Assembly: GCA_017421325.1 (NCBI GenBank)
Contig: JAFOJO010000024.1
Span: 27,005-91,004 of the forward strand
Source of the DNA: Candidatus Saccharimonadota bacterium
GTDB lineage: Bacteria; Patescibacteriota; Saccharimonadia; Saccharimonadales; Saccharimonadaceae
Direction of reading: 5' to 3'
DNA length: 64,000 nt
Positions 7,954 to 24,688 of this stretch are shown here, one piece after another. Numbering within the stretch: the first letter of the stretch is position 1; every line of letters begins with the position of its first letter. The notes under the pieces were generated by a model. It was not told the origin of the DNA, did no database searches, and saw only the letters and a program-made list of their open reading frames with translations. The position numbers and the translations under genes were made by a program.

Positions 7954-8087
7954 TGCATAATTCATCATATCTCGGAAGCTTCGCAATGTGATATTAAATT
8001 ATATCACATTGCTTCGCCCCTTCGGCGGCAAGAATTTACCTAAGGGTAAATTTTGCCTTTATGTTCCTCAATATAATGAATTATGCA
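7954..8087. mobile_element. ~134-bp MITE-like element, copy A
   Basis: TIR TGCATAATTCAT/ATGAATTATGCA, two internal hairpins, homologous inverted copy at 45438-45570. Confidence 0.7.
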
Positions 8088-8114
8088 ATATCGCCCCATG
8101 CTATAATAAAAGTT

Positions 8115-9053
8115 ATGGATATCTCGATTATTGTGCCAGTTTACAATGCGGAGAAATATTTGGATAAATGTATACAATCCACATTGCAGGCTTTAAGCAA
8201 TTTTGATGGGCGTGGAGAAATTTTGTTGATTGACAATAATTCGACAGATAAATCTGGTGCTTTGATGCAGAAATATCAGAAAAAATATCCAGAAACGATA
8301 TTTTTATACAAACAAAAGACGCCAGGCGCAGCAGCAACCAGAAATTATGGCGTTTCGAAAGCTACTGGGAAATATATTTGGTTTATAGATGCGGACGACA
8401 CTATTAGCAGCGATGCTGTAGTAAAGTTAGCGGAGAGGGCTAAAGAGAAAACAGTAGATTTAGTAATGATGGGTGCGAAAAGAATTTTCCCAGATGGCCA
8501 TACAAATTTCTTATCAGCTATATGCCCCCATGAAAATGATTATAAAAGTAAATTTGTACGATACGGCGCTGGGCCGTGGCAGTTTATCATAAGGAGAGCT
8601 TGGTGGAATAAAAATAATTTTAAATTCCGCGAGGGAATTATTCATGAAGATATGGAACTAATGTCAGCATTAATACTTTACACAGATAAATTCGCTTGCG
8701 TAGATGAGCCTTTGTATAATTATTATCAAAATCCAGAATCGGTACTACATAAAACTAGCTGGGACCCGCATTATTTTGATATTTTTTCGGCACTAGCGGG
8801 ACTTTATGCAAGGTTCGATGAAAAAGGGGCAGTGAGGAATTATTATAATGAACTGGAGTGGTTTTTTATTTGGAATTTACTGATAGATTCGGCTAAGGAT
8901 TTTGGCAAATTTAAAGAAGGGCACAGTGGCTTCAGGCGTTCACGACAAATGCTAAAACAATATTTTCCAAATTGGCGGAAAAATATCTTTTTAAAACAAA
9001 AACCATTAAAACTGCGGGCGCGAGTGTTTTTAAATTATTATCGATGCAAATGA
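8115..9053 (+). CDS. Family 2 glycosyltransferase
   Basis: ISIIVPVYN, DNNSTD, ATRNYG, FIDADD, HED motifs. Confidence 0.9.
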   Translation: MDISIIVPVYNAEKYLDKCIQSTLQALSNFDGRGEILLIDNNSTDKSGALMQKYQKKYPETIFLYKQKTPGAAATRNYGVSKATGKYIWFIDADDTISSDAVVKLAERAKEKTVDLVMMGAKRIFPDGHTNFLSAICPHENDYKSKFVRYGAGPWQFIIRRAWWNKNNFKFREGIIHEDMELMSALILYTDKFACVDEPLYNYYQNPESVLHKTSWDPHYFDIFSALAGLYARFDEKGAVRNYYNELEWFFIWNLLIDSAKDFGKFKEGHSGFRRSRQMLKQYFPNWRKNIFLKQKPLKLRARVFLNYYRCK

Positions 9054-10108
9054 TTTTTAATTTTAGCTAGCATTTTATTTAGATAATAAAATGCATTTAA
9101 TGAGGATTCGTAAGTGCCAACTAATTCAATAACGTGCCCGCCAAAACCTTTTTTAAATTCGTAAATCCCGTAATCTTTGGCATTTGGGTCGGGCAAGCCT
9201 TGAATGCCATAAAAATTATAACGTTTAAAATGGTGCTTGGCGGCGTATTGAATCATATACCACTGAATAAGATATTGTGCGTTGTAATCTCGCATGTATT
9301 TTTGATCTGAGCCAGAAAATAGATAGATGATTTCGTCGCCATACATAATAAACATAGCTGCCGAGAGTGGTACTGTTTTGCCGTCAATCTTGGCTTCGGC
9401 GAGAATGAATTTGGCTTCGTTTTTTGGCACAAAAAGTCGGTACATTTTCTCATAATACGCTAATGGGCGGTCGGTAAAGTTGCGACGTTCGGACGTAGAT
9501 TCTGTAATTTGTTTAAGCTTGGGAAGTTCATCTTCGTCAATTTCGCGTATTTCTACGCCCATTTTTTCGGCTTTACGAATATGATTTCTAGTATTTCTCT
9601 TAAATTCGGACCAAAGTTCGTCGGCAGTGCGACCATTAATATCCAACGCAAAAAGATATTTTGGCTGAGAAGCGTGTTGTACTGGCTTAAAACCTAGGCT
9701 CTGGAGAGCAGAAACAACCTTTTGATGGTTGAAACCATGCTCGACCTCAATGCCATTGCGGTCACGTTGGATGAGTTCGTAATATGGACTAATTTGTAAC
9801 ACGTAGCCATTATGCGTTTTAGCATAAGAGCGAATTTTGGAGAGGAAAAACTTAGTGAGCGCGGTCTTTTCTAAATCTAGCAGTGGGCCTCCTGGTATAG
9901 TAAAAAGTGATTTACCAAAAAAAGTAGGTTTAGCAAAAGCTAGGGCGGCTGCAAGAATTTCTTCACCCTCTTTCACGGCAAAGTAATATGATGTCCAACC
10001 TTCAGATTCTCTATAACTGGCAATTTCTGATGTTTGAGTGAAAGAGCGATACTGATTTTGGTTGGCAAATTTCTTAAATTCTTCAACCGAGATTAAAACA
10101 AATTTCAT
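9038..10108 (-). CDS. FemABX/MurM-family peptidoglycan bridge aminoacyltransferase
   Basis: FTQTS, GGPLLD, RRNFTDRPLAYY, YNFYGI, GIYEFKKGF motifs. Confidence 0.85.
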   Translation of the reverse strand: MKFVLISVEEFKKFANQNQYRSFTQTSEIASYRESEGWTSYYFAVKEGEEILAAALAFAKPTFFGKSLFTIPGGPLLDLEKTALTKFFLSKIRSYAKTHNGYVLQISPYYELIQRDRNGIEVEHGFNHQKVVSALQSLGFKPVQHASQPKYLFALDINGRTADELWSEFKRNTRNHIRKAEKMGVEIREIDEDELPKLKQITESTSERRNFTDRPLAYYEKMYRLFVPKNEAKFILAEAKIDGKTVPLSAAMFIMYGDEIIYLFSGSDQKYMRDYNAQYLIQWYMIQYAAKHHFKRYNFYGIQGLPDPNAKDYGIYEFKKGFGGHVIELVGTYESSLNAFYYLNKMLAKIKNHLHR

Positions 10109-10152
10109 GTTTTTATTATACATCGATTATCGAATTTGTTATAATGAATTAT

Positions 10153-11793
10153 ATGCGAAGATTTAAGTTTAAGTCGGTGGTAAGATTGGCCAATATGAAG
10201 CTGTCGGTAAAATCGGCAGCGATCGTACTAGCTTCGTCTACTTTGGTCTCGGCTTTACTTGGGTTATTTCGCGACCGCTTGTTAAATTCCTATTACTTGG
10301 GCACTTATCCTACCGGGATCGATGCTTATACGGCAGCGTTTACCATACCAGATTTTATGTTTTTTATTTTGACTTCGGGCGCGTTAGCAGTATCGTTTAT
10401 TCCAGTATTTAATCAAAGGTTAGCTTCGGGTAACAAAAAATCAGCGTGGGAACTTTCTTCTAGTTTACTTAATTTGTTTGCAATTTTAACCTTAATTACT
10501 AGTGTGCTGATTATGATTTTTGCGGACCCTTTAATTCGCTATATTGTGAGTCCAGGATTAGACGAGTCTGGCATGATTCTCGCTATTAATATGACACGGG
10601 TGATTGCGATTAATCCGTTTTTGTTTTCTATTGCTACGGTGCTGACTTCTATTCAGCAGGCCGTGGGACGTTTTGTATTTTACGCCTTTGCGCCGGCGAT
10701 TTATAACATTGGTATTATCATTGGTATTACTTGCTTTACGGGCGGGATTAATGTCTTTGGCGTAGAAGTATTTGGCGGCGGGATTATGGGTGTGGCGCTA
10801 GGCGTAATACTGGGGGCGATTATGCAGCTAATCGTGTCTTTGATTGGACTATTTGGCCTAGGAATGGACTATAATTTCAAAATTAATTGGAAAAATCAAG
10901 GATTTAGGTCTATTTTGCGTCTATTGCCAGCGCGGTCACTAGATCAGGGGATTGACTACATAAATGGAATCGTAAACACAAACTTGTCCTCGCGGATGGG
11001 CGCTGGGGCGGTGAGGTCGTTTAACCAGGCATCTTCTTTACATTTAATGCCGGTAAATTTAATTGGTGTAGCAATTTCTACCGCTTTTTTTCCAAAACTA
11101 ACCGAAGAATTAGGTAACGGCGAAAAAGGGGAATTTAACAATACTTTTCGACAGGCGCTACGTACAATTATTTGGATAGCATTGCCGGTGTCGGTAATTG
11201 CGTTTTTTGGGCGGGGTTATGTAACCAGTTTTATTTCCAACATTGGCAATAACGATAGCAACGGCACAATCGCTTCAATACTTGGCACTTTGTGTATCGC
11301 GATTTTTGCGCGCAGCGTGTTTCATATTGCTTCGCGCGGATTTTACGCCTACCAAGATACCAAAACACCATTCGTGGTATCTATCGTTGCGATTGGGCTA
11401 ACGATTTTGCTATCAATATGGTTTTACGTGCTAGGCTGGGGGGTGGACGGGTTGGGCCTCGCGCAGTCTATCGGCGCAATTGTAGAAATTATTATCCTGC
11501 TGTATATTTTGCAAAAAAGGTCAAAGAAAGAATTATTAGATAAGGCTTTTTGGCGGGCAATGTTAAGAATGGCGTTTGCCACGATAATTGCTGGATGTGT
11601 GGCATTTTCGATGACTAAGTTTATTCCGCTGATGGCGACAGATAATTCGTTAGTAATCACCATTCCGAAATTCTTGGCGATTTCAACGATTTCGGCTGTT
11701 GCGTATATCGTGGCAAGTTATTTCTTGGACCTGAAGGAAGCTAAGCCAATCTTTAGCTACTTTAAGAAAATTTTGTTTAGAAACGCCAAGTAG
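10153..11793 (+). CDS. murJ: Lipid II flippase MurJ/MviN
   Basis: LGLFRD, DAYTAAFTIPD, SFIPVF; polytopic membrane protein. Confidence 0.9.
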   Translation: MRRFKFKSVVRLANMKLSVKSAAIVLASSTLVSALLGLFRDRLLNSYYLGTYPTGIDAYTAAFTIPDFMFFILTSGALAVSFIPVFNQRLASGNKKSAWELSSSLLNLFAILTLITSVLIMIFADPLIRYIVSPGLDESGMILAINMTRVIAINPFLFSIATVLTSIQQAVGRFVFYAFAPAIYNIGIIIGITCFTGGINVFGVEVFGGGIMGVALGVILGAIMQLIVSLIGLFGLGMDYNFKINWKNQGFRSILRLLPARSLDQGIDYINGIVNTNLSSRMGAGAVRSFNQASSLHLMPVNLIGVAISTAFFPKLTEELGNGEKGEFNNTFRQALRTIIWIALPVSVIAFFGRGYVTSFISNIGNNDSNGTIASILGTLCIAIFARSVFHIASRGFYAYQDTKTPFVVSIVAIGLTILLSIWFYVLGWGVDGLGLAQSIGAIVEIIILLYILQKRSKKELLDKAFWRAMLRMAFATIIAGCVAFSMTKFIPLMATDNSLVITIPKFLAISTISAVAYIVASYFLDLKEAKPIFSYFKKILFRNAK

Positions 11794-11809
11794 TGGTATA
11801 ATTTAGGAT

Positions 11810-12097
11810 ATGGAAATAAAACGCGAGGACATTATACATTTGGCGGATTTGTCAGATTTTTCTTTGAGTGAGTCGGAAATTACGTCTTTGGGGCAAGATT
11901 TGCAGGGAATTATCGGCTATATTTCGCAGTTAGAAGAATTAGACACCGACAATACTAAGCCAACCTATCAGGTATTTGAAATGGAAAATGTGTGGCGGGC
12001 AGACGAAATTTTGCCACAAGATGCCACACGTGAGGAGTTATTAGCCTTGACTAAAGAAGAAAAAGATAATCAAATAAAGGTACCGAAAGTATTATGA
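11810..12097 (+). CDS. gatC: Asp/Glu-tRNA amidotransferase subunit C
   Basis: I.HLA.LS...L pattern, KVPKVL end, position before gatA. Confidence 0.9.
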   Translation: MEIKREDIIHLADLSDFSLSESEITSLGQDLQGIIGYISQLEELDTDNTKPTYQVFEMENVWRADEILPQDATREELLALTKEEKDNQIKVPKVL

Positions 12098-13464
12098 AAA
12101 TAGCAAACAAAAAAGTAACAGCCGAGAGATTGGTGCGTGATGCTTTGGAAAAAGCCAAGCATTTTGCAGATTATAATATTTTTACGTTTTTGAACGAAGA
12201 AGGTGCTTTGGAAAAGGCACGCGAAATTGATGCGAAAATCGCCCGCGGGGAAGAAGTGGGGCGGCTGGCTGGCGTGCCGTATGCCTTGAAGGATAATTTT
12301 CTCAGCCCTGAAGGGCAAACTGCCGCGGCTTCGCATATTTTGGAGGGGTTTGTGTCGCCGGTGACAGCTACAGCAGTAGAAAAATTAGAGGCGGAAGGTG
12401 CGATTATGGTTGGGCGCACCAATATGGATGCATTTGCACACGGATCATCTACAGAAAATTCGTATTTTGGGCCAACGCACAATGCTTGCGATAAAGAACG
12501 AGTTGCCGGTGGATCTTCTGGCGGTTCGGCGGTAGCGGTAGCATTAGATATTGTAGAGTTTGCAACTGGCACCGATACTGGCGGTTCTATACGCCAACCG
12601 GCTTCATTCAATGGCGTATATGGATTAAAGCCTACGTATGGCACTATCTCGCGCTATGGCGTAGTAGCAATGGCGTCCTCTACGGATTGTATTGGATTCT
12701 TTACAAAAACCCCAGACGATATGAATTTATTAATGGAGATTGCGAGCGGGCAAGACGAAAAAGACCTTACGACTTTACCAGATTACTACGACAATGCAGG
12801 CGCCAAAAAGATTACTAAGGTCGGAATTATCAAGGATTTTGACAACAACTCAGTACATCCAGAAATCCGCAAAGCTTTACAGAATAAAATCGAGCTACTA
12901 AAATCTAAGGGCTATGAAATCGTAGATTTAGAAATGCCGGCTTTAAAATATGCGCTCGCGGCATATTACATAATTGTACCGGCAGAAGTAGCAAGTAATT
13001 TATCGCGCTATGACGGAGTGCGATACGGATTTCGTTCGGAAAAATCGGAAGATTTAGACGCGCTCTATAAGAATACACGCGGTGAAGGTTTTATGCCAGA
13101 AAATAAACGCAGGATTATGATCGGGAACTTTGTATTGTCTAGCGGATTTTATGATGCATATTTCCTAAAAGCAGCCAAAGCGCGAACTTTAATCGTGCAG
13201 GAGTACACAAAAGCCTTCGAGAAGTGCGATTTTATACTTTCACCGGTTACGCCAAATCCAGCCTTTAAGTTAGGCGAAAAAACTAGTGATCCGGTAACTA
13301 TGTATCTAGAAGATGCGATGACGGTACCATTAAACCTTGCTGGCGTACCTGGCCTTACTATACCGGCCGGTAAGACAGAGGATGGCGTCGCCCTAGGGCT
13401 ACAGCTGATTGGCCCGCGACGCAGCGATAAGAATTTAATCGAATTCTCTAAGGAGCTAATATAA
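12094..13464 (+). CDS. gatA: Asp/Glu-tRNA amidotransferase subunit A
   Basis: Amidase signature GGSSGGS, GTDTGGSIRQPA, SRYDGVRYG. Confidence 0.97.
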   Translation: MKIANKKVTAERLVRDALEKAKHFADYNIFTFLNEEGALEKAREIDAKIARGEEVGRLAGVPYALKDNFLSPEGQTAAASHILEGFVSPVTATAVEKLEAEGAIMVGRTNMDAFAHGSSTENSYFGPTHNACDKERVAGGSSGGSAVAVALDIVEFATGTDTGGSIRQPASFNGVYGLKPTYGTISRYGVVAMASSTDCIGFFTKTPDDMNLLMEIASGQDEKDLTTLPDYYDNAGAKKITKVGIIKDFDNNSVHPEIRKALQNKIELLKSKGYEIVDLEMPALKYALAAYYIIVPAEVASNLSRYDGVRYGFRSEKSEDLDALYKNTRGEGFMPENKRRIMIGNFVLSSGFYDAYFLKAAKARTLIVQEYTKAFEKCDFILSPVTPNPAFKLGEKTSDPVTMYLEDAMTVPLNLAGVPGLTIPAGKTEDGVALGLQLIGPRRSDKNLIEFSKELI

Positions 13465-13883
13465 TGGACGGCGGAGTAGTAACTTTTATCTTTGCGATAC
13501 TATTCGTAGCCGTGCTGGTATTTATTGCAATTTTATTAACTGGTAAGCGCGGGCACCATTTTAATGTAGAAGCTTATCAGTCACGGTTTTTGGCGATTGA
13601 AAATAAATTATCTCAAGATAATCCAGCCACTTTTATAACGACAGTGATAGAAGCGGACAAATTACTGGATAAAGCACTGATAGAGATGGGTGTGCCGGGC
13701 AAAACTATGGGGGATAGATTAAAGCGTTCTGGTGGAAGATTTACAGATATTAATGCGGTGTGGCGGGCACACAAATTACGTAATGCTATCGCGCACGAGC
13801 CCGATTTGGAGATGAGTCATAAAAAAGCATCTAATGCGTTGGCGGTTTATAAGCAAGCGTTAAAAGATTTAGGAGCCATATAA
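13464..13883 (+). CDS. Membrane-anchored hypothetical protein
   Basis: N-terminal TM; EADKLLD...GKTMGDRLK...AHKLRNAIAHE. Confidence 0.7.
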   Translation: MDGGVVTFIFAILFVAVLVFIAILLTGKRGHHFNVEAYQSRFLAIENKLSQDNPATFITTVIEADKLLDKALIEMGVPGKTMGDRLKRSGGRFTDINAVWRAHKLRNAIAHEPDLEMSHKKASNALAVYKQALKDLGAI

Positions 13884-15295
13884 TGAAATATATACCTACA
13901 ATTGGCATAGAATGTCATGTACAGCTAGCCACCAAAACGAAATTATTTTCCGAAGTAGATAACGATGCGCGCGGTAAAGAGCCAAATTCTTGCGTATCGC
14001 CGGTAGATTATGCCTTGCCAGGCATGCTGCCGCGTCTAAACGGGGAAGCAATAAAGTTTGCAATCTTGGCTGGTAGGGCCATGAACTGCGAAATTAATGC
14101 TTATTCTAGGTTTGATCGTAAACATTATTTCTACCCAGATTCACCAAAAGGCTATCAGATTACTCAGTTTTATCATCCGATTATCGGTGAAGGTTATGTG
14201 GAATTGCCATCCGGTGCCAGAATTCGCATAGAGCACGCACACCTAGAGGGTGATGCGGGCAAATTAACGCATTTTGATATGTATTCACTGGTGGATTTAA
14301 ACCGCGTAGATACGCCACTAATTGAAATTGTTTCTATGCCGGATATTCACTCGGCGAAAGATGCACACGATTATTGTAAGGAACTATGGCGGCTGATGAC
14401 TTTTGCCGGGGTATCGTATGGAGATTTATATAATGGCAATATGCGTTTTGATGTAAATGTTTCTTTGGCGCCAGAAGGCGCTACTGAGCTTGGTACGCGC
14501 GCCGAGGTGAAGAATTTAAATTCATTCAGAAGCGTAGAGCGAGCCGTAGAATATGAAATTGCACGACAGAGCAAAATACTAGATGCTGGTGAAAAGGTAG
14601 TACAAGAAACTAGGGGTTGGAACGATAGCACAGGCAAAACTACCGGGCAGCGTAGCAAGGAAGAGGCTAAAGACTATCGCTATATGCCAGAGCCAGACTT
14701 ACCACCGATTAATCTAACCGCTGAATTCATTGAGACAGAATCCGCAAAATTGCCGCTAATGCCAACAGGTTATCGCAAGAAGTTTGGCGGTGTTTTGAAG
14801 GCTGAAATTTTAGAGGTTCTACTAGATTATGCCGAATTAATGAAAAAACTTGCTGAGATTGATGAGAAATATGTGGTAGCAATTGCGAATCTGTTTACTT
14901 CTGTATTACTAGCTGAGGAAAAATCGGCGGAATATCTCAATGATTTGCCAACTGCAAAGCAATTAAATGACCTGGCAGAGATGAACGAAAAGAAAGAGCT
15001 CAGCTCTACCGCTACAAAAGAGGTATTCCTCCGATTGTTTGATCCACAAATGAAAGGCCGCGACACTAAGGTCATCGCTAAGGAATTGGGGTTAATTCAA
15101 GAAAATGATTTGGGCGCCCTAGAAGCAATAGTAGATACGGTTCTAGCTAAGCCAGAGACTCAGAAGGCCCAGGCCGATTTTAAGGCTGGGGAAGAAAAAG
15201 TGATTGGTTTCTTGGTGGGACAAGTGATGAAAGAATCCCATGGTAAAGCTAATCCATCTGCCGTGCAAGAGATTTTACGAAAAAAGTTAGCTTAA
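13883..15295 (+). CDS. gatB: Asp/Glu-tRNA amidotransferase subunit B
   Basis: IGIECHVQL, FDRKHYFYPD, DYRYMPEPDLPP. Confidence 0.97.
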   Translation: MKYIPTIGIECHVQLATKTKLFSEVDNDARGKEPNSCVSPVDYALPGMLPRLNGEAIKFAILAGRAMNCEINAYSRFDRKHYFYPDSPKGYQITQFYHPIIGEGYVELPSGARIRIEHAHLEGDAGKLTHFDMYSLVDLNRVDTPLIEIVSMPDIHSAKDAHDYCKELWRLMTFAGVSYGDLYNGNMRFDVNVSLAPEGATELGTRAEVKNLNSFRSVERAVEYEIARQSKILDAGEKVVQETRGWNDSTGKTTGQRSKEEAKDYRYMPEPDLPPINLTAEFIETESAKLPLMPTGYRKKFGGVLKAEILEVLLDYAELMKKLAEIDEKYVVAIANLFTSVLLAEEKSAEYLNDLPTAKQLNDLAEMNEKKELSSTATKEVFLRLFDPQMKGRDTKVIAKELGLIQENDLGALEAIVDTVLAKPETQKAQADFKAGEEKVIGFLVGQVMKESHGKANPSAVQEILRKKLA

Positions 15296-15299
15296 GCGC

Positions 15300-15328
15300 T
15301 TGACGGATGCTAATGGATGCGGTAAGAT
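15300..15328 (+). promoter_or_regulatory. Sigma70-type promoter
   Basis: TTGACG (15300-05), 17 nt, TAAGAT (15323-28). Confidence 0.65.
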
Positions 15329-15455
15329 GGTCTACATAGACGGTGATATCTGTCTTGTGTTATTTAAAACGATTGTAGGAAAATAAACCCAGGACGGTGG
15401 CTCGTCATTGACGTAAGTATATACTACGTCCCAGCCGGAAAGGAGGAAATTATCC

Positions 15456-15623
15456 TTGACGCGAACATTTTTCCCGATGAGGATCCCAGGTTTTGCCGCA
15501 CCAATAGGGCGGCCAGTACCTGAAGGATTAGGCCTCTTGGAGAAGCCGCTGGGGGATGATAATCAGCAAAGTACCCCCTTCACCGTGGCGGCACAAGCGT
15601 ACGATAAGCTTGTGCCGAAGTAG
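15456..15623 (+). CDS. Possible 55-aa small ORF (TTG start)
   Basis: AGGAGG 9 nt upstream of TTG; no recognisable homology. Confidence 0.3.
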   Translation: MTRTFFPMRIPGFAAPIGRPVPEGLGLLEKPLGDDNQQSTPFTVAAQAYDKLVPK

Positions 15624-15899
15624 CTTAAGAGGCTACCGTTTGCGGAAGTTATGTTATCTAAGTTTTTTTCACTTCCCCTAATACAGTAGCCTCGGTAAAA
15701 ATCCGCGCATACGTTCACAGATGCGTAGGCATGCGAACACACAAAATCGTTTTTTATCGTTTTAGTAACACGTCCGAACATTAAAAGTCATCCGGTAGGC
15801 GCGATCCAGAGCCAGTCGCAAATCTAAACCCTATTGCTAGTTAATGAACAATTGAATAATGAATAATCTTTTCGGCTCAGGATGACTATTATCCTCTCT

Positions 15900-15930
15900 A
15901 ATCCCAGTACAGCCAGTACTGGGATTTTTC
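15900..15930 (+). terminator. Intrinsic terminator
   Basis: AATCCCAGTAC-AGCCA-GTACTGGGATT followed by Ts. Confidence 0.8.
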
Positions 15931-16049
15931 CTGCCTTTCAACCAAATCTAGTGGTTTATGCTTGACAAGAATAAGCATGTGTGGTATAATGATGATATGG
16001 ATAGGAGGTTTGCAGCCTAGCCAAATAAAAAACAGGACCGGTGCTGTCT

Positions 16050-16760
16050 ATGAAAATAGCAAAAGTAGTTTTAACATTCATCTCTAATTTCCTCCAAGCA
16101 AGGAAAAAGAGAAAGGAGAGAAAGAGGATAGGAAACTATCGCAGGGAAAGGTATTATAGCAAAAAGGCAAAAGATTTCATACGAAGACCGTTTATATACT
16201 CGAGCATCCCCAGGACCGAAAAGGTGTTGATCATCGCCTACGGCGTTCTGGATTTCTACAAGTATTACGGCAAACGGTATCTATTGCAAGCCGTAGAAGT
16301 CGCATTATCTTTATGGAGCGATATTCTACAGCTTGACTTGGTGGCGTCGATGTCGCCAGAGTCATTAGAAGACTATAATATCCCGGCAGTGAATGCATGT
16401 TTCAATGATCTACTGTTGAAGTACGGTCACTTAGATGTAGTATACCACAAGCGTAAATACAGAAAGTTGAAGCATGCAGCTTGTAAAGCTGCTAGTTCTA
16501 AAGCCGGTGATCACTTCTATCTTACGGAACAAAGAATCGGGATGCCAGTAAGAATGTTCTTGGTGTGGTATAAGGGCGGAGTGTCTATTCCGAACGATAT
16601 ACTGCAGGAATGGTCAGGGATACCAGCGGATAAGCTGGAGGATGCATACCAAAGCATTTTACAGATCTTTAAGGATGACTTAAAATCAAATGGAAGATGG
16701 GACATGCTGACTAATTCAACCAAAAAATTCGAGGCTCCGATTATTGAAGTTTCAATCTAA
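16050..16760 (+). CDS. Hypothetical basic protein (unrecognised)
   Basis: Long ORF with own consensus promoter TTGACA-17-TATAAT (15962-15990) and a UUCG-loop terminator at 16795-16818; GTG at 16041 is an alternative start. Confidence 0.7.
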   Translation: MKIAKVVLTFISNFLQARKKRKERKRIGNYRRERYYSKKAKDFIRRPFIYSSIPRTEKVLIIAYGVLDFYKYYGKRYLLQAVEVALSLWSDILQLDLVASMSPESLEDYNIPAVNACFNDLLLKYGHLDVVYHKRKYRKLKHAACKAASSKAGDHFYLTEQRIGMPVRMFLVWYKGGVSIPNDILQEWSGIPADKLEDAYQSILQIFKDDLKSNGRWDMLTNSTKKFEAPIIEVSI

Positions 16761-16945
16761 CCCCTATTTCTCCTCATTCAGGCTAGGCCTGGGGCCCCGA
16801 GTTCGCTCGGGGATTTTTCTTGGCCAAAATTTTAGATTAAATTTCATTTTATTTTTGCAGTAGATATGGTATAATTTAGCAAAATATGTCTTGTTTTTGA
16901 GTGTGGAGCTTAAAAAAGACCAAAATAATAAATTAAAAGGAGCAT

Positions 16946-19045
16946 ATGGCTACTGAAGTTAAAGACCTAAAAAATCTGCGGAATATCGGGATTATCGCTC
17001 ATATTGACGCAGGCAAAACTACTACCTCAGAAGCGATTTTGTATCGCACGGGGTTGAAACATAAAATTGACCTAGTGAAGGGTGGCACTGGTGGTGCCGA
17101 TACCGACTGGATGGAGCAGGAAAAGGAACGTGGTATCACTATTACCTCTGCCGCGGTAACGGTTTTCTGGAAAAATCATCAAATCAACATTATTGATACC
17201 CCGGGCCACATTGACTTTACCGCCGAGGTAGAGCGTTCACTACGTGTACTAGATGGTGCCGTGGTGGTATTTGACGGCAAGATGGGCGTAGAGGCGCAGT
17301 CTGAGACTGTATGGCGCCAGGCTACTAAATATGGTATTCCACGTATTTGTTTCGTAAACAAAATTAACCAGATTGGTGGCGATTTCTATAAATCACTAGA
17401 TTCTATCCACAAGCGCTTGTCTAAAAACGCAGTAGCAATCCACTTGCCAATTGGTTTTGAAAAAGATATTTGTGGCGTAGTAGATTTAGTAGATATGAAG
17501 GCTTACACCTATAAGGATTATGCCGACCACGAGCTAACAGTCGGTGAAATTCCAGCCGATATGGTAGAGAAGGCCAAAAATGCTCGTTCGATGTTGGTAG
17601 AGGAAGCCGTCCAAGCCGATGAAAACTTGATGAATAAGTTCTTTGAGGAAGGCGAAGACGCTATTACTGTAGACGAGCTAAAGGCAGCACTACGCAAGCG
17701 CGTGCTTGACGGCGATTTCTTCTTAGTAACTGGTGGCGATGGTCGTGGTGTGATTGTAGAAAAAGTTCTAGACCTCATGACCGATTACTTGCCATCACCT
17801 CTAGATCGTGACCAAGGTCAAACCGTAGGCACCAATCCAAAGACTGGTGACGAAATCGTACGCAAGGCTGAAAACTCTGAACCTTTGACAGCTTTGGCAT
17901 TTAAGATTGCAACAGATCCGTTCGTAGGTAAGTTAATCTTTGTACGCGTATATGCTGGTAAATTAAAGTCTGGTGACACCGTATATAATGCCACAACTGG
18001 TGACAAGGAAAGAATCGGGCGTTTGGTACGTATGCATGCTAACGATCGTAAAGAGATTTCAGAGATTGGCGCAGGTGACATTGCCGCTATCGTAGGGCTC
18101 AAGAATTGTACCACTGGTACTACTCTTTGTGATCCAGCACATCCAATCTTACTAGAGTCTATCGAATTCCCAGATCCACCAGTGTCTATCGCCGTCGAAC
18201 CGAAGACTAAAGCCGACCAAGAAAAAATGGGGCTTGGGCTTTCTAAAATGGCAGAAGAAGACCCAACCTTCCGCGTGCATACTGATGAAGAAACTGGCCA
18301 GACAATCATTTCTGGCATGGGTGAGTTACACCTAGAAATCATTATAGACCGTTTGAAACGCGAACATAATGTAGAAGCCAATACTGGCGCACCACAAGTA
18401 GCTTATCGTGAAACTATTCGCGGTACCGCAGAGGCACAAGGTAAGCACATTAAACAGTCTGGTGGTCGTGGTCAGTACGGTGACGTATGGATTAAGTTTG
18501 AGCCAAACGAACCAGGGAAAGGCTTTGAATTTATTGACCAAATTAAAGGCGGCGTGGTGCCTCAAGAATACCGCAAGCCGGTACAAAAAGGCGTGGAAGA
18601 CACACTTGCTGGTGGCGTTATCGCTGGTTATCCAGTAGTAGATATTAAGGCTACACTTTATGATGGTAGCTACCACGATGTGGACTCATCCGAGCTCGCC
18701 TTTACCTTGGCTGGTGCTTTAGCTACTCGTGAAGGTATCAAGAAAGCTAACCCAGTACTCTTGGAGCCTGTGATGAAACTTGAAATCACCACTCCAGAAG
18801 AATTTATGGGTGACGTAATTGGCGATATCAACTCTCGCCGTGGCCGGATTGACGAAATGGAAGATCTGAACGGTGGTGCTAAGCTGATTAAGGCGTTCTG
18901 CCCGCTGGCAAACTTGTTCGGCTACACCGGTGATTTGCGTGGTATGACGCAGGGCCGTGCAGCCTCTTCCATGGAGCTCTTTGCTTACGAGGAAGTTCCG
19001 CCAAACGTAGCGCAAGAGATTATTGAGAAGAGAAATTCGAAATAA
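16946..19045 (+). CDS. fusA: Elongation factor G
   Basis: AHIDAGKTT, RGITI, DTPGH, GMGELHL, GGRGQYG. Confidence 0.99.
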   Translation: MATEVKDLKNLRNIGIIAHIDAGKTTTSEAILYRTGLKHKIDLVKGGTGGADTDWMEQEKERGITITSAAVTVFWKNHQINIIDTPGHIDFTAEVERSLRVLDGAVVVFDGKMGVEAQSETVWRQATKYGIPRICFVNKINQIGGDFYKSLDSIHKRLSKNAVAIHLPIGFEKDICGVVDLVDMKAYTYKDYADHELTVGEIPADMVEKAKNARSMLVEEAVQADENLMNKFFEEGEDAITVDELKAALRKRVLDGDFFLVTGGDGRGVIVEKVLDLMTDYLPSPLDRDQGQTVGTNPKTGDEIVRKAENSEPLTALAFKIATDPFVGKLIFVRVYAGKLKSGDTVYNATTGDKERIGRLVRMHANDRKEISEIGAGDIAAIVGLKNCTTGTTLCDPAHPILLESIEFPDPPVSIAVEPKTKADQEKMGLGLSKMAEEDPTFRVHTDEETGQTIISGMGELHLEIIIDRLKREHNVEANTGAPQVAYRETIRGTAEAQGKHIKQSGGRGQYGDVWIKFEPNEPGKGFEFIDQIKGGVVPQEYRKPVQKGVEDTLAGGVIAGYPVVDIKATLYDGSYHDVDSSELAFTLAGALATREGIKKANPVLLEPVMKLEITTPEEFMGDVIGDINSRRGRIDEMEDLNGGAKLIKAFCPLANLFGYTGDLRGMTQGRAASSMELFAYEEVPPNVAQEIIEKRNSK

Positions 19046-19060
19046 TCTAGCTCAAAATAA

Positions 19061-19094
19061 TAAAAAGACCAGATAAAATTATCTGGTCTTTTTA
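19061..19094. terminator. Bidirectional terminator
   Basis: TAAAAAGACCAGAT/ATCTGGTCTTTTTA perfect stem between convergent genes. Confidence 0.85.
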
Positions 19095-19190
19095 TTTGGG
19101 GGGGCAGAAAAAAATCATCATTAAACATTTAGCTATTTCCGACTATAAAAAATAATCGGCCATACGACCGATTATTTTTACTTACTTTGA

Positions 19191-21113
19191 TTAGTATTTT
19201 TTATTAAGGAATCTTTTCCTGGAGAATGCCCTCGCGCTAGCATATAGGCCGAGACTGCCACCAATGGCGAACACTATTATCGTTGCGTTATCAGACAGGA
19301 TGCCTCCGTTGGCGGTTTTTGTGATAGCACCAGTATCTGGTGGCGGTGGAGCGACCGAGACGGTCTGGCTGGCATTATCGAAATCTGAGTGAGAGAGGAT
19401 AAGCTCATCTCCATAGTAAAGCTCTTCGAAAATCACTAGATCTGTGCCGCCCAAATCTTTAGTATTTAGACTGTAGATCATTTCGGTAGTTCCGCAAGTG
19501 CTATCCGGTGTGAGCGTAATGGTTTGTTCTACTTTTTTACCATCAACCAAAAGTGGCTCTTTAGTGTTTTTGTTCATTACTACACCCTTAATAGTAAATT
19601 CCATATCCTCTTTAAGGCAGTAGTCCACCACATCTTTAATTTCTATATCTTCATTAAAAGCAACTATCTTATCGCCGTCGGCATTATCCGTAGCGGTGGT
19701 AGTGATACTAAACTCCGCACAGTCATTAGACCACTCACCAAGATCTACTACCTCGCCATTGGTTTTAATGGTAACAGTTTTCTTGGTGTCGCCAATATCG
19801 TAACAGAATTTGTTGGCATCGCATTCTAATTCGGTAATTTCATATGTGTCGTATGGGAGTGCCCCTTTGTCGTCATCTACGGCATTAGCTGCGCCAAACC
19901 AAGTGCCATAGGCAAGATATTCTATTTCATCTTCTTCCATATCGTCATAGCCATTAGTGTGGAATTTGTGGGAAGCGTGAGCTGCAGAAGTATCCACAAC
20001 GCCGTTTTCGTCCGACACAACTAAATGCTCCTCTTTGACGCCACTAGTAGATTTGATTTTGAAAACTACATTAGACATTGGCTCGCCGTCTACATCGCTG
20101 GTTTTAGTGAATTTGACATCGCCACGGATAACGTCGTCGTAAAATTTCAGTTCGTTAGCAGCACTACCAGCGATAATAGTAGGAGTCTGCTCTGACGCGG
20201 TAAGCAGATAGCTGACATTAGTTTTAGTTTCTTTAACTCGATATTTTATACCGATAGGCAAATTTCTAACGATAAGTAGCCCATTAGTATCGGTAGAGCC
20301 AGAAGCAATAAGAGTACCATCATTATAAAACTGACCATCGCCGGGATTGTAAATTCTGTTGCCAGAAGCATTATAGATTTCAAACTCAATACCACTAAAA
20401 TTGGCCTGGCCCTGTGCACTGTCACATTTTCTAGTCTCGCTGTCGCATTTTTGTATTTTAAGATCGCCATATTGAGGGTCAGACTTTATCCATACGACAG
20501 ACTGATAAAACGAGTCGCTGTCTGGATTAGTAGTGTAAAGCGTGTAATTTTTTGCAATTAGCCAAGCATCTGCATTATGGCTAATTGCATAGGCTAGACT
20601 TTCTTCGTCTTCGTCGGTACCGTTAGCTATCGTTCGAATTTTATCGAGGTTAGTAGACAGTCCGGCGTCATCGCCATTAATTACACCAATCGTGGCGTGA
20701 ATGTACGCAAAACGTTGGTCATCGGTGTTAGCCAAATTGCCATATAGAGCATTCACTAGCTCGTTGGCAGAGCCACTATTATTAGTGGCAAGGTAAACCA
20801 ATAGTTTAATTTTGTCGTTATTTAATGAAGAATAATCGTAGCTAGCGCCAGCCGGGGGGTTCTTAGACGGCTCTGCACAGAGGGCCTTATAAGGTTCTCC
20901 GCCTATCTCAACCGAATATCGATAAGTGGCACCGCTGCCATCATAACGTATAATCTCACCGCTACTGCTAACTTTCGCTTGTTCCCCTGCGGCTTCGACA
21001 ACACCAATTTGAATATTCTTCACCGCAATAAAAGCGCCTGCAATAATCGCAATGGAAGAGGTGAGTGCTAGTAAGAAGCGCTTCAGCAGCTTGGTTTTTA
21101 ATAATGTAAACAT
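19191..21113 (-). CDS. Gram-positive-type surface adhesin (thioester-like, SpaA/Cna-B-like and ester-bond/VaFE-like domains, PPDTG sorting signal)
   Basis: Signal/TM; ALCAEP..NPP; GDLKIQK, GDVKFTK and Y.VKE repeats; VIFEELY..HSDFDNASQTV; PPDTG + TM + basic tail. Confidence 0.7.
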   Translation of the reverse strand: MFTLLKTKLLKRFLLALTSSIAIIAGAFIAVKNIQIGVVEAAGEQAKVSSSGEIIRYDGSGATYRYSVEIGGEPYKALCAEPSKNPPAGASYDYSSLNNDKIKLLVYLATNNSGSANELVNALYGNLANTDDQRFAYIHATIGVINGDDAGLSTNLDKIRTIANGTDEDEESLAYAISHNADAWLIAKNYTLYTTNPDSDSFYQSVVWIKSDPQYGDLKIQKCDSETRKCDSAQGQANFSGIEFEIYNASGNRIYNPGDGQFYNDGTLIASGSTDTNGLLIVRNLPIGIKYRVKETKTNVSYLLTASEQTPTIIAGSAANELKFYDDVIRGDVKFTKTSDVDGEPMSNVVFKIKSTSGVKEEHLVVSDENGVVDTSAAHASHKFHTNGYDDMEEDEIEYLAYGTWFGAANAVDDDKGALPYDTYEITELECDANKFCYDIGDTKKTVTIKTNGEVVDLGEWSNDCAEFSITTTATDNADGDKIVAFNEDIEIKDVVDYCLKEDMEFTIKGVVMNKNTKEPLLVDGKKVEQTITLTPDSTCGTTEMIYSLNTKDLGGTDLVIFEELYYGDELILSHSDFDNASQTVSVAPPPPDTGAITKTANGGILSDNATIIVFAIGGSLGLYASARAFSRKRFLNKKY

Positions 21114-21330
21114 ACTTGTTCCTTTTATTTTATTTTTTGTGTTAGACCTTTTGTATCCTCATTATATACATAAGTTTTACGGTTGTCAAGAGTTTTTTGC
21201 AAGAATTTTGGTGAGATTTTTCTCTAAAAGCTCTTTACAAGTGGGGAAAAATAGTCTAAAATAGTATGGTAGAGTTTTGGAGCTGGTTTTTATTAGCGCT
21301 CCAACCGTAATGTAATAAAAAGGAGAATGA

Positions 21331-22515
21331 ATGGCAAATTTTGACCGTTCCAAGCCGCACATTAACGTCGGCACCATGGGTCATGTCGACCATGGTAAAA
21401 CCACTTTAACTGCTGCGATTACTAATGTACTCGCAAAGCGTTTGCCAAGTGATGTTAACAAGGCAGTCGCTTACGACCAAATCGATAACGCTCCAGAAGA
21501 GAAGGCTCGTGGTATCACCATCGCTACTTCTCACCAGGAGTATGAGTCTGAGAAGCGCCACTACGCACACGTAGACATGCCAGGCCACGCAGACTACATT
21601 AAGAACATGATTACCGGTGCCGCTCAGGTAGATGGCGCTATCTTGGTAGTTGCTGCCAATGATGGTCCTTTGCCACAGACTCGTGAGCACGTACTTCTCG
21701 CCCATCAGGTGAACGTACCAAAAATCATTGTGTTCCTAAACAAAATGGACCTAGCTGATCCAGAACTAGTAGAACTAGTAGAGATGGACGTACGTGACCT
21801 ATTGAACAAATATGGTTTCGATGGTGACAATGCGCCTATCATCAAAGGTTCCGCTACTAAGGCCCTTGAAGGCGATAAGGAAAACGAAGACGCTGTTATG
21901 GAACTCGTCAAAGCTATGGATGAGTACTTTGATGTACCAGAACACGATCTCGACAAACCATTCTTGATGCCAATCGAGGATGTCTTCTCTATCAAAGGCC
22001 GTGGCACTGTTGCTACTGGTCGTATCGAGCAGGGCGTCGTAAAATTGAACGATGAAGTTGAAATCGTTGGTCTTAAAGACACTCAAAAGTCGGTTGTAAC
22101 TGGTATCGAAGCCTTCCATAAGACTTTGGACCAAGGTCAAGCTGGCGATAACGCTGGTTTGCTCCTTCGTGGTATCGAGCGCGATCAAATCGAACGCGGT
22201 CAGGTGATTGCAAAGCCTGGTTCAATCACTCCTCATACCGAGTTTGAAGCTCAGGTTTACATCCTCAAGAAAGAGGAAGGTGGTCGTCACACTCCATTTT
22301 CTAAGGGTTACAAGCCACAATTCTACTTCCGCACCACTGACGTGACCGGCGAAGTAGAACTTCCAGCCGATAAGGAAATCGTCATGCCTGGCGATCAGGT
22401 GACCTTCAAGGTTAAATTGCTCGCTCCAGTAGCTATGAACGAGCAAGATCGTTTCGCTATCCGTGAGGGTGGTAAGACTGTTGGCTCCGGTGTTATCACT
22501 AAGGTTATAAAATAA
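21331..22515 (+). CDS. tuf: Elongation factor Tu
   Basis: [25 protein letters not shown]. Confidence 0.99.
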
Positions 22516-22529
22516 TATAGCCACTTTTA

Positions 22530-22555
22530 AAAATAGCCCCTTAAGGGGCTATTTT
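22530..22555 (+). terminator. tuf terminator
   Basis: AAAATAGCCCC-TTAA-GGGGCTATTTT. Confidence 0.85.
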
Positions 22556-22574
22556 TGTGGCTATTTGGTTTTCT

Positions 22575-22725
22575 TGTTCCAGTTACCGGAACCGTTATTG
22601 GGGCGCTATGCTTCGTTAGGAGATGCGCTGCTCATTCGCCGTACGTTAAGTACGGCTCGGTTCGATGCTCCTCCTGCCTCACCTAGCACTCCTACTAACG
22701 ATTTGTCGGAATAGTTACAAATCGC
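22575..22725. repeat. REP-like multi-hairpin element
   Basis: Stems GCCGTAC/GTACGGC, CGTTAG/CTAACG, CGATTTGT/ACAAATCG, GTTCC/GGAAC. Confidence 0.5.
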
Positions 22726-22821
22726 AAATTTTACTTTATATGAAAAATATGTTAAAATATAAGGATGGGGGAGTTCTTTTATTGTTTGGTTGGAAAATAT
22801 GGTTTAAAGGAGTGATGTAAT

Positions 22822-23805
22822 TTGGAATTTCAAAAAAAATACGGAAGTTTCGAACATATCGCATCTGGCAAGGTGCGCGAAGTTTACCTGAGTGAGGAAA
22901 ATGATGAAATAATGATGGTGGCGACCGACCGAGTTTCGGCTTTTGATCAAAAGCTCGGTATCGAAATTCCGGACAAAGGCAAGATTCTGACGGCCATATC
23001 AGCCGAGTTTGCATGTTTGGCTCAAGAAAGCTGGGGCATCCGGACTGCATATCATTACGCGGGTACACCTTGCTCCCAGGTTGTTATTGGCTGCTTTATG
23101 CTTCGTCAATTTAAAGACTATAATATTATCGGTACCGCACCCGAGCTATCTGGTCGCTTTACTCTTATGGAAAACCTTCAAATGTTCCCGGTGGAATGCA
23201 TTGTACGCGGATACCTGTTTGGTAGCATTTGGAAACTCTACGAACAGGGTGAACGCGTAATCTGCGGCGTGAAATTGCCCGATGGGCTAGTAAAGGGTAG
23301 TAAATTGGAAGAGCCAATCTTCACGCCCACCACCAAAGCCCCGGAAGGCGAACATGACGAGAACATCACACTCGAAGAAATGACGATAATACTTGGGAAA
23401 ACTGGTATGGTATTTGATGCCTGGGAAACCGCTACGGAGATCCGCGATTTATGTATCGAGCTTTACCAAAAAGCCGGCACATGGGCATACGAACGTGGCC
23501 TTATTATCGCCGATACTAAATTCGAGTTGGGATTATATAGGCTCAATGATGAAGTTGGCGTACGCATTTGCTTCGGCGACGAGATTTTAACGCCGGATTC
23601 TTCACGTTTTTGGGATGCAGAAACATACGTCCCGGGCGAAGAGCCAAAATCCTACGATAAACAGATCATTCGAGATTATTTGGCGGAAGCTCAGGCTCGC
23701 GGCGAAGTTAATCCTACCTTGCCTGCTGATATTATCGAGAAAACTCGCCAGCGTTATATCGAGCTCTATGAAAAGCTCTTTGATAAAACTTGGCCGAAAG
23801 GTTGA
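22822..23805 (+). CDS. purC: SAICAR synthetase
   Basis: SGKVREVY, ATDRVSAFD, ECIVRGYL.GS, FTPTTKA, ADTKFE, DEILTPDSSRFW, SYDKQ; TTG start with AAGGAG. Confidence 0.93.
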   Translation: MEFQKKYGSFEHIASGKVREVYLSEENDEIMMVATDRVSAFDQKLGIEIPDKGKILTAISAEFACLAQESWGIRTAYHYAGTPCSQVVIGCFMLRQFKDYNIIGTAPELSGRFTLMENLQMFPVECIVRGYLFGSIWKLYEQGERVICGVKLPDGLVKGSKLEEPIFTPTTKAPEGEHDENITLEEMTIILGKTGMVFDAWETATEIRDLCIELYQKAGTWAYERGLIIADTKFELGLYRLNDEVGVRICFGDEILTPDSSRFWDAETYVPGEEPKSYDKQIIRDYLAEAQARGEVNPTLPADIIEKTRQRYIELYEKLFDKTWPKG

Positions 23806-23897
23806 CTATTCAACTGAACCCCCCACTCCAACCAAATCCCTCGCTCACGCGGGGGATTTTTGTGATATAATGTAGAATAATAAGCATAAGGAGTATA

Positions 23898-24182
23898 ATG
23901 AGCGAGAAAAAGAGTATTTATAGTTTAAGCATTAAGGAAATGCGGAAATTACTACGGGGTTTTTCTAATACTTTGTATGGACGAACGGTGTTTTTTTTGG
24001 CTTATTTTGTGCCGATGATGGCATTTCTAGTGATGACAGGGCTAGTAGTAGCCGAAATGATCAGGCCAGAATATGAACTATTTTATCCAATTATGGGCAC
24101 ATTCTTCCTCTTTATCGGCGTATTTATTTTGGGAAATATTTACTATTATCACGAACTTCGCGTGTTCGCCGAGAAAAGATAG
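23898..24182 (+). CDS. Small two-TM membrane protein
   Basis: Own TATAAT, SD AAGGAG, two hydrophobic segments. Confidence 0.7.
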   Translation: MSEKKSIYSLSIKEMRKLLRGFSNTLYGRTVFFLAYFVPMMAFLVMTGLVVAEMIRPEYELFYPIMGTFFLFIGVFILGNIYYYHELRVFAEKR

Positions 24183-24361
24183 TGGAGGTAGCGACTATTT
24201 ACTTAATAATACACTGAGGTCATCTGTTGACAGTGGCTGCTTGATTTTTGGGGCGAAGTGTGGTATAATGGGGGTATATTAAATTAATTATCTACCTCTA
24301 AAAACTTATCGACAGACCATCTAAGCGTTTATCTAAGGTTATAGGGAAGAAAGGAAAAAAT

Positions 24362-24688
24362 ATGGCAGAAGCCAAGAAAAACGAAGGCCTGAAGATCCGG
24401 ATTCGGCTGAAGGCTTATGATCACCGCGTGATTGATCAAAGTGCAAGGCAAATCGTAGACACCGCTATCCGCACTGGAGCAAGCGTAAGTGGGCCCATCC
24501 CACTACCTACCAAGCGTAGCACCTTTACCGTAGTAAAGTCGCCACATGTATACAAGACCGGTGGCGAAGCTTTCGAGATGAAGGTGCATAAGCGTTTGAT
24601 TGATATTTCCAACGCTACCCCAAAGACAATTGAGAGTTTGCAAAACCTCTCGCTCCCAGCTGGCGTGGACGCAGAAATTAAGATGTAA
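24362..24688 (+). CDS. rpsJ: 30S ribosomal protein S10
   Basis: [29 protein letters not shown]. Confidence 0.99.

Follow-up and report, generated by a model that had tools for sequence, protein, structure and literature searches.

A family of abundant, structured transcripts around a small open reading frame between gatB and fusA in rumen Saccharibacteria

Introduction

What kind of gene occupies the stretch between gatB and fusA in a rumen member of the Saccharibacteria? The stretch is part of a 64,000-nt piece of DNA (here "the window": contig JAFOJO010000024.1 of assembly GCA_017421325.1, positions 27,005 to 91,004 of the forward strand), and all coordinates below are those of the window. 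The organism is Nanosyncoccus-like, and relatives of its gatB with 80–99% identity all come from metagenome-assembled genomes of ruminant-gut Saccharibacteria. Directly downstream of gatB lies the element that concerns us, followed by an orphan gene, p239, and then by fusA. An earlier reading, made from the letters of the window only (the sequence-only reading), had proposed that a promoter and a strong terminator delimit ~590 nt without a long plus-strand open reading frame (ORF), that a long-range helix closes a domain within them, and that the whole is a large ornate non-coding RNA, possibly of a new class. Here, we describe a transcript that is discrete, very abundant, and strongly structured, and that carries a small ORF behind a strong Shine-Dalgarno (SD) sequence. 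We hold with moderate confidence that the element is a self-contained gene whose product would be a small protein of ~55 amino acids (aa) and whose nuclease-resistant mRNA would be built to accumulate.

Relatives of the element, all of them between gatB and fusA, were sorted by the family of their ORF: the window, L003, L005, L040, and L200 belong to family A; L001/L002, L014, L054, and L202–L208 to family B; L008/L209 to family C; and L055 to family D. Loci from L081 onward up to L199 were disregarded as chance matches of the short pattern of the closing helix in viral contigs.

A discrete and very abundant transcript

The outer limits of the element are set by the following features:

15335–15930, + strand: primary transcript of ~595 nt, discrete and very abundant, matched by RNA contigs at 100% identity
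15300–15328, + strand: promoter, TTGACG (−35), 17-nt spacer, TAAGAT (−10), with 9 of 12 consensus matches
15900–15930, + strand: intrinsic terminator, AAUCCCAGUAC-AGCCA-GUACUGGGAUU followed by U5, i.e., a perfect 11-bp hairpin at 15900–15926 and a T run

The promoter and the terminator had both been recognized in the sequence-only reading, and comparison with relatives bears them out. The TTGAC of the promoter and the T/A positions of its −10 element are unchanged across 12 related loci, with L040 having TTGACA-17-TATAAT; transcription is predicted to start at ~15334–15336. The terminator is found in 13 of 14 elements, and its stems covary.

The ~590-nt species that had been predicted is readily seen in rumen metatranscriptomes. 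The 631-nt query is present in at least 14 runs from at least six studies, and RNA contigs identical to the window start at 15345, 15348, or 15349 and end at 15894–15907 (runs X20, X25, X26, X27, X28, and X30). The RNA depth of the flanking gatB and p239 is 0 to 3, and fusA is almost silent. Across positions 8000–27000, at ≥98% identity, the element has a contig depth of 173 in X25, 41 in X27, 39 in X26, 31 in X30, and 24 in X20, with all other genes at depths of ≤8 save one EF-Tu fragment (17.5 in X26). EF-Tu (21331–22515) reaches 5, 6, and 17.5, purC 3–8, and EF-G at most 4. Within the 19 kb examined, no other RNA of this organism comes near the abundance of the element transcript, which exceeds EF-Tu mRNA several-fold to ~35-fold by the rough measure of contig depth. 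An equivalent discrete pattern is seen for the L002 allele in four other studies. Because DNA runs cover gatB, the element, p239, and fusA at even depth (~40 throughout in run X1), the sharp boundaries of the RNA are not an assembly artefact.

The left ends of the RNA contigs adjoin an Illumina Read-2 primer tail, and one right end adjoins AGATCGGAAGAGCGTCGTGTAG (AGATCGGAAGAGCGTCGTG). The plus-strand gene purC, in the same run, carries the same adapter on its right, which places the RNA on the plus strand. The contigs begin ~10 nt inside the predicted start, within the 5′-terminal hairpin described below, and end at the foot of the terminator hairpin, as expected from random-primed libraries if the transcript spans 15335–15930 (both ends being predicted). 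The RNA is strongly structured, with a minimum free energy (MFE) z-score of −3.5 against shuffles for 15335–15925. Since the minus strand scores better still (−6.3), fold energy is no guide to the strand, which we assigned from the adapters, the promoter, the terminator, the ORF, and the G.U bias of the closing helix.

A small open reading frame under selection

The sequence-only reading had found no long plus-strand ORF in the element. There is one of 55 codons, behind a perfect 9-nt SD sequence:

15438–15446, + strand: SD sequence GAAAGGAGG, 9 nt upstream of the start codon
15456–15623, + strand: small ORF, TTG start, 55 aa, MTRTFFPMRIPGFAAPIGRPVPEGLGLLEKPLGDDNQQSTPFTVAAQAYDKLVPK, with a coding signature and homologous peptides

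Complementarity of the SD sequence to 16S rRNA was assumed from the general anti-SD, the 3′ end of the organism's own 16S gene being outside the window. The same 9-mer, or AAGGAGG, precedes the start codon in related cassettes. The start codon is TTG in some members and ATG in others, always equally far from this strong SD sequence, the ORFs are 55–68 codons long, and the position of the stop codon is kept in all but L040.

Codon-aligned comparisons speak for translation. Synonymous and non-synonymous codon changes number 137:133 in frame for family A, versus 40:220 and 21:233 in the shifted frames; for family B, the figures are 89:133 versus 29:184 and 19:194. The in-frame excess of synonymous changes over the shifted frames is 3- to 10-fold, and indels within the ORF are of 3 or 6 nt. 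The ORF families are only ~20% identical to one another, yet they share motifs that are written with different codons: an N-terminal FFPMRIPGF/hGFLxFP (FFPMRIPGF, IIGLLAFPMPI, IGFLVFP) and a C-terminal AxxYxKxVPx (AAQAYDKLVPK, FYYHKTVPT, YFYKVAPT, FYYRKVEPQ). ORFs of this peptide superfamily occur at ≥18 of 80 loci in a profile search of the gatB–fusA site. Judged by these comparisons, the ORF at 15456–15623 is shown to be under protein-level selection.

The same evidence bears on whether the element could be a purely non-coding large ornate RNA, its ORF a by-product of structure. The fold is indeed highly structured, some of the helices predicted inside the ORF show compensatory changes, and synonymous sites of the ORF are 79% conserved between the window and L005, compared with 43% at fusA four-fold sites. 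Against it stand the frame-specific synonymous excess, in-frame indels, a fixed start, a stop fixed in every element but one, and peptide motifs encoded by different codons in different families. A 10-bp inverted repeat that the sequence-only reading had listed as a perfect helix (CGGCACAAGC/GCTTGTGCCG) counts against it too. The repeat is present, but it lies inside the ORF, where the helix CGGCACAAGC/GCUUGUGCCG falls in the codons for AAQAYDKLV, and 3 of its 10 pairs are lost in L003 and L005 by synonymous changes. We consider a purely non-coding element very improbable.

The predicted product (segments IPGFAAPIGR, PVPEGLGLLEK, and PLGDDNQQSTPFTVAAQAYDK; ANLGMWAAVPDNFTIAPPTYDIK in a family-B peptide) is rich in proline, glycine, and aromatic residues. 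It belongs to no family in Pfam, NCBIfam, PHROGs, or PADLOC and has no relatives beyond its own group in 5.8 billion or 1.84 billion sequences: a word-indexed search returned only nine unnamed clusters, and an exhaustive HMMER search with the profile returned known members plus spurious repetitive proteins. A two-part DNA pattern had no matches in metagenome contigs. AlphaFold2 gives no confident fold and no predicted helix (predicted local distance difference test [pLDDT] score of 54). Because the protein evolves fast at a recombining hotspot (see below), our guess is a role in conflict or host interaction rather than in housekeeping.

One rival reading is a type I toxin message like those of hok and aapA, i.e., a stable, folded-back message for a toxic peptide that is silenced by its own structure and by an antisense RNA. 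The hok and aapA1 mRNAs have long-range 5′–3′ pairing around a small ORF and form a stable pool of full-length RNA. Here, too, a small ORF lies within a long-range 5′–3′ helix, the RNA is abundant and apparently full length, the locus is variable and cassette-like, and the peptide of a neighboring cassette family (L010) has a transmembrane helix. However, the peptide of the element is not hydrophobic, with a maximum Kyte-Doolittle 17-residue mean of 0.71 versus 3.3 for the L010 peptide; its SD sequence is not sequestered by the long-range helix; there is no antisense promoter within 15300–15930, and all adapter-bearing contigs have one polarity; and PADLOC finds no match. A type I toxin is, in our estimation, improbable.

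A conserved scaffold around a variable interior

The elements share a common architecture: promoter, a hairpin (P0) that abuts the 5′ strand of a long-range helix (P1), an interior of ~380 nt, the 3′ strand of P1, a junction (J), a closed 3′ domain, and the terminator. In the window, the parts of this scaffold, with the hairpins in the 5′ untranslated region (UTR) and after the stop codon, are as follows:

15338–15355, + strand: P0, 5′-terminal hairpin AGACGG/CUGUCU, beginning 2–4 nt from the predicted 5′ end
15357–15373, + strand: P1 5′ strand, GUGUUAUUUAAAACGAU; (U)GUGUUAUUUAAAACGAU in relatives
15393–15430, + strand: two 5′-UTR hairpins, GACGG-UGGC-UCGUC and GACGUA/UACGUC
15629–15693, + strand: post-stop hairpin GAGGCUAC.../...GUAGCCUC, then a small hairpin at 15693–15705
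15746–15753, + strand: second copy of AUCGUUUU (ATCGTTTT), which could pair instead with the inner half of P1
15756–15771, + strand: P1 3′ strand, AUCGUUUUAGUAACAC; AUCGUUUUARUARCAC in relatives
15772–15784, + strand: junction J, GUCCGAACAUUAA, consensus CCGNACNUUA, unpaired, directly after P1
15785–15891, + strand: 3′ domain, with AGUCAUCC/GGAUGACU as its closing helix and GAGCC/GGCUC inside

P0 is a hairpin of 6–9 bp that adjoins P1 in all 14 elements, with at least seven distinct stem sequences and compensatory pairs found by RNAalifold. P1 is a helix of 15–19 bp that in the window includes the long-range repeat 15365–73/15756–64. The proposal that 15357–73 pairs with 15756–71 over ~16 bp and closes a ~380-nt domain is upheld by relatives: in 12 of 12 full-length elements, RNAduplex pairs the 5′ strand best with the P1 3′ strand, 370–430 nt away, and 84.5% of cells in the P1 alignment are paired, versus 35–65% for slid partners. 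Three positions show compensatory changes (U-A replaced by C-G in L054, L202, and L002; A-U replaced by G-C in L202 and L055), and L041 and L078 keep P1 with largely different sequence. The duplex is more stable on the plus strand in 10 of 13 elements and has nine G.U pairs there versus two on the other strand. This stability and G.U bias favor an RNA helix over a DNA-level inverted repeat.

Further helices are conserved to different degrees. In the 5′ UTR of family A, GACGG-UGGC-UCGUC is invariant in sequence, as is CGGTGGCTCGTCATTG; the GACGUA/UACGUC hairpin covaries, both partners of pairs 87–105 and 88–104 being changed in L040 and L200. For family A, RNAalifold lends support to P0, P1, the terminator, and the GACGU/ACGUC hairpin, the last with two compensatory pairs. 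Other cassette families have analogous post-stop hairpins of different sequence, followed by GGUGGUAAUCCAC or GUGGCUCAGCCAC. The remaining inverted repeats of the sequence-only reading, among them GAGGCTAC/GTAGCCTC and AGTCATCC/GGATGACT, are all present in the sequence; the TCCCAGC/GCTGGGG helix that it also proposed is not in the consensus fold. The second ATCGTTTT, which would allow the alternative register for P1, is present as well. A second or partial upstream copy of AUCGUUUU was seen by eye in L003, L014, L054, and L202 and apparently not in L002, L005, L040, or L008.

J is conserved and is unpaired in the MFE folds of nearly all aligned elements, with a variant in L008 and no recognizable copy in L209. 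After J, almost all elements have a closed 3′ domain or hairpin of 25–170 nt (L008 is ambiguous), the closing sequences being unrelated (e.g., GCAGACGUA/UACGUCUGC). On inspection, neither pairing of J with a loop of the 3′ domain nor anti-SD pairing of the CU-rich spacer at 15892–15899 is conserved across families. A direct repeat of CGAACATT (15462 and 15775) is not found in relatives and was taken as chance. The 3′ domain of the window also contains a 7-nt tandem repeat (TAATGAA, ×3.6, at 15842–15867) that is not conserved in other alleles. Our structure model is limited to P0, P1, the 5′-UTR hairpin, closure of the 3′ domain, and the terminator; the rest of the fold is a prediction.

Known RNA classes

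The sequence-only reading had found no tmRNA, RNase P, or intron signatures, and covariance models agree. At the gathering score, Rfam has no match in the whole window; at E ≤10, positions 15200–16100 give two chance matches only, both on the terminator; and the elements of seven related loci match nothing. OLE, ROOL, GOLLD, raiA, RNase P, tmRNA (transfer-messenger RNA), and introns are all absent by this check.

Several classes were considered individually and rejected. The Rfam models of RNase P, tmRNA, 6S, signal recognition particle RNA, and introns are unmatched. ARAGORN finds no tRNA or tmRNA, and the ORF has GAAAGGAGG, a TTG or ATG start, and 55–68 codons, unlike the tag ORF of a tmRNA, which has neither an SD sequence nor a start codon. 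A retron ncRNA is not suggested by the neighborhood: there is no adjacent reverse transcriptase, p239 lacks any Pfam, NCBIfam, or PADLOC domain, and gatB and fusA flank the locus. As for type III toxin-antitoxin (ToxIN-like) RNAs, the sole tandem repeat is the 7-nt array in the 3′ domain.

A recombining hotspot and relatives without a Shine-Dalgarno sequence

The spacer between gatB and fusA is hypervariable, ranging from 83 nt to >3 kb among 80 Saccharibacteria genomes. Its content differs from genome to genome and includes various small-ORF cassettes, small membrane proteins, and p239-like genes; in several genomes, the spacer is only ~90 nt long. Breaks in the DNA assembly graphs of two metagenomes at 15304–15333, on the left border of the cassette, suggest that several alleles coexist. 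One related element (L200:1042–1753) is a mosaic that combines a family-A ORF with a 3′ domain typical of the L002 allele, pointing to recombination between cassettes.

The spacers of L056, L065, L019, L025, L069, and L015 hold other families of small-ORF cassettes with different long-range helices (e.g., CUCGGUGGGGAGCGU/AUGCUCCCCACCGGG in L056/L065). These place both the long-range helix and a J-like ACUUUAA motif upstream of the SD sequence, share a AAAUCUUACCCAAG leader before GAAAGGAGG, and have a post-stop hairpin followed by GUGGCUCAGCCAC.

Could P1 be a feature of the DNA, i.e., the terminal inverted repeat of a cassette resembling a miniature inverted-repeat transposable element, or a recombination site? 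Inverted repeats of 16–17 bp do flank ~380 bp of variable cargo, and the mosaic alleles of the hotspot and the graph breaks at the cassette edge fit as well. However, the window has one copy in 64 kb, all members found are at the gatB–fusA site, and no transposase is present. In addition, the repeats lie inside the transcript, between promoter and terminator, and the strand bias of P1 described above (its G.U mismatches and its stability) follows the transcribed strand. A DNA-level role for P1 is, to our minds, hardly credible.

Two relatives of ~270 nt (L041:5464–5763 and L078:5425–5728) lack the SD sequence. They have P0, P1, J, a small 3′ hairpin, and the terminator, with CCUCC or ACUCC at the position of the GGAGG of the window, plus a CU-rich tract. 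The L041 element is a discrete RNA contig (5514–5726) at depth 16 with flanks at 0, and its variants differ by indels of 2, 5, and 9 nt and appear non-coding. They may be non-coding or decaying members of the family.

These relatives matter for a further explanation, namely that the element is a dual-function RNA: translated, and with a scaffold (P1, J, and the 3′ domain) that also functions as RNA, either regulating by base pairing or soaking up a protein or ribosomes like a sponge. The element has the size, abundance, embedded small ORF, and long-range helices of RNAIII and Pel (PMC12612679). L041 and L078 keep the scaffold without GGAGG and with indels of 2, 5, and 9 nt, yet give a discrete RNA; J is conserved and unpaired; and between the window and L040, identity is higher in the 5′ UTR (76%) than in the ORF (67%). 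On the other side, no C/U-rich loop motif is conserved across families, stability elements together with recombination could account for the conservation, and the 3′ domains of different alleles lack homology, which argues against sequence-specific pairing by that domain. By analogy with the known examples, we keep a dual function as a serious, though unlikely, possibility. Stated for the scaffold itself, the proposal is that P0, P1, J, and the 3′ domain define an abundant ornate RNA family specific to Saccharibacteria, with an RNA function of its own and with the small ORF as a separable second function; this we put forward as tentative and rather doubtful. In that case, the scaffold may titrate ribosomes, an RNA-binding protein, or an RNase, or may act on other transcripts, and the window would be the coding form of the family (GGAGG) with L041 and L078 as the non-coding form (CCUCC).

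A proposed stabilized message for a small protein

We favor the reading given at the outset, in which the element is the gene of a small protein with an mRNA built to accumulate. Its parts can be arranged into a plausible mechanism. (i) P0, as a hairpin within a few nucleotides of the predicted 5′ end in 14 of 14 elements, would block 5′-end-dependent decay. (ii) The strong SD sequence would keep a 30S subunit or a ribosome on the leader, like the stabilizing SD sequence (STAB-SD) of cry3A. (iii) P1 would join the 5′ and 3′ UTRs outside the reading frame; its strands lie 83 nt upstream and 133 nt downstream of the ORF, so that it can stay closed during translation. (iv) The 3′ domain and the terminator would block 3′ exonucleases. 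Together, these would give a long-lived, heavily translated message.

Several points weigh against this account. That P0, P1, and the 3′ domain stabilize the RNA is an inference. Untranslated sequence makes up ~72% of the transcript, and both the 3′ domain and J are more elaborate than stabilizers require. Because L041 and L078 lack an SD sequence, keep the scaffold, and are expressed, the scaffold is not merely an accessory of translation. The covariation of P1 is modest (a score of 0.184, compared with 0.155 ± 0.017 for shuffles, 30 of 500 of which score equally high), which reflects a helix that is mostly conserved in sequence. The elements of the window and L005 are 88% identical, compared with 43% at fusA four-fold sites, and such conservation overstates selection because alleles recombine between lineages. 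The stop codon of L040 departs from its usual position. Finally, contig depth, from which the abundance of the RNA was read, is a poor proxy for expression.

Neighboring genes

The genes on either side of the element are:

13883–15295: gatB, directly upstream of the element
16041–16760: p239, an orphan ORF of 239 aa between the element and fusA
16946–19045: fusA (EF-G), downstream of p239

The p239 region (15962–16760) begins with a perfect extended promoter, TTGACA-17-TGnTATAAT, at 15962–15990. The p239 protein is only 29% identical to its counterpart in L002 (236/239 aa), whereas the promoter is conserved and the flanking gatB and fusA are 98–100% identical. It has no family in Pfam, NCBIfam, PHROGs, or PADLOC scans and just three close clusters among 5.8 billion proteins in a word-indexed search, and AlphaFold2 yields no usable model (pLDDT of 44). 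Its expression is weak (contig depth of 3).

Three other observations concern the vicinity. A motif, AUGUCUUGUUUUUGAGUGUGGAGC, in the fusA leader (16886–16909) lies between the fusA promoter (−10 at 16870–16875) and the SD sequence of the gene; it is kept in nearly all 80 loci, has no Rfam match, and may regulate EF-G in cis. An ORF of 139 aa (13464–13883), with an N-terminal membrane helix and no significant Pfam match, is squeezed in between gatA and gatB so that stop and start codons overlap; it is conserved at the same position in L202 and L209. Downstream, on the minus strand, a 640-aa protein (19191–21113) has thioester (TED), SpaA-like, and T-Q ester-bond domains and is probably a covalent adhesin, which would fit the life of an episymbiont.

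Novelty and significance

Neither the RNA architecture nor the peptide family has a match in Rfam 15, Pfam, NCBIfam, PHROGs, or PADLOC, and we found no prior description in the papers searched. According to a 2022 preprint on the transcriptome of TM7x, no small or regulatory RNA has been validated in that genome or in Saccharibacteria at large (10.1101/2022.03.25.485537). Many orphan genes of Saccharibacteria are likewise uncharacterized. The locus described here combines a conserved RNA architecture with a small protein that diversifies fast, in a recombination hotspot flanked on both sides by housekeeping genes.

The proposal of a new large ornate ncRNA class survives in part: the RNA is structured and belongs to no Rfam family, but that it is non-coding is not supported, given the selected ORF, the SD sequence, and a peptide family in at least 18 of 80 genomes. 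A more fitting description is an ornate small-protein mRNA of a new family, or a candidate dual-function RNA. More generally, calls of "ornate ncRNA" from sequence alone can conceal real small ORFs. If the scaffold does stabilize its message, the element would provide an uncultivated phylum with a high-expression module of natural origin, and it would mark the bulk products of these episymbionts. If the scaffold also works as RNA, the Candidate Phyla Radiation (CPR) would gain its first large family of regulatory RNAs.

Comparison with known systems

The element shares with the large RNAs ROOL, GOLLD, OLE, HEARO, and raiA (Rfam 15) its size range, its structure, its high expression, and, as for ROOL, its rumen origin. 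It differs from them in having no covariance-model match at E ≤10, a selected ORF with an SD sequence, and a fixed chromosomal locus that is not associated with prophages or tRNA genes. From hok and aapA1, with their long-range pairing around a small ORF, it differs in that the peptide is not a membrane toxin, the SD sequence is not occluded by the helix, and an antisense RNA is not evident.

Two dual-function RNAs are similar in form: RNAIII of Staphylococcus aureus has 514 nt, 14 stem-loops, and the 26-aa hld, and Pel of Streptococcus pyogenes has 469 nt and the 53-aa SagA (PMC12612679). Like them, the element is an abundant RNA of 470–600 nt with many stem-loops and its own promoter and terminator, in which a small ORF (26 and 53 aa there, 55 aa here) is a minor part. 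Unlike them, it has no sequence or Rfam similarity to either and no conserved C-rich loops, its ORF lies inside the closing helix, its phylum is Saccharibacteria/CPR, and the regulatory half of its function is conjectural.

The reading that we favor has a precedent in the cry messages, which belong to the stabilized messages of Gram-positive bacteria. The STAB-SD of cry3A retains a 30S subunit and in this way blocks RNase J1, and 3′ inverted repeats are a further device of cry mRNAs (PMC4113751). In the element, the SD sequence is apparently also the site of translation initiation, the 5′–3′ closing helix of 16–19 bp and the 3′ domain of 100–170 nt have no counterpart in the cry messages, and what is known of the RNA is its steady-state abundance. 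What the element shares with the cry3A STAB-SD and cry1A 3′ "positive retroregulator" messages is an SD sequence of the GAAAGGAGG type in the leader (perfect by the general anti-SD), a hairpin at the predicted 5′ end, strong 3′ inverted repeats or a strong terminator, and an unusually abundant mRNA (PMC4113751).

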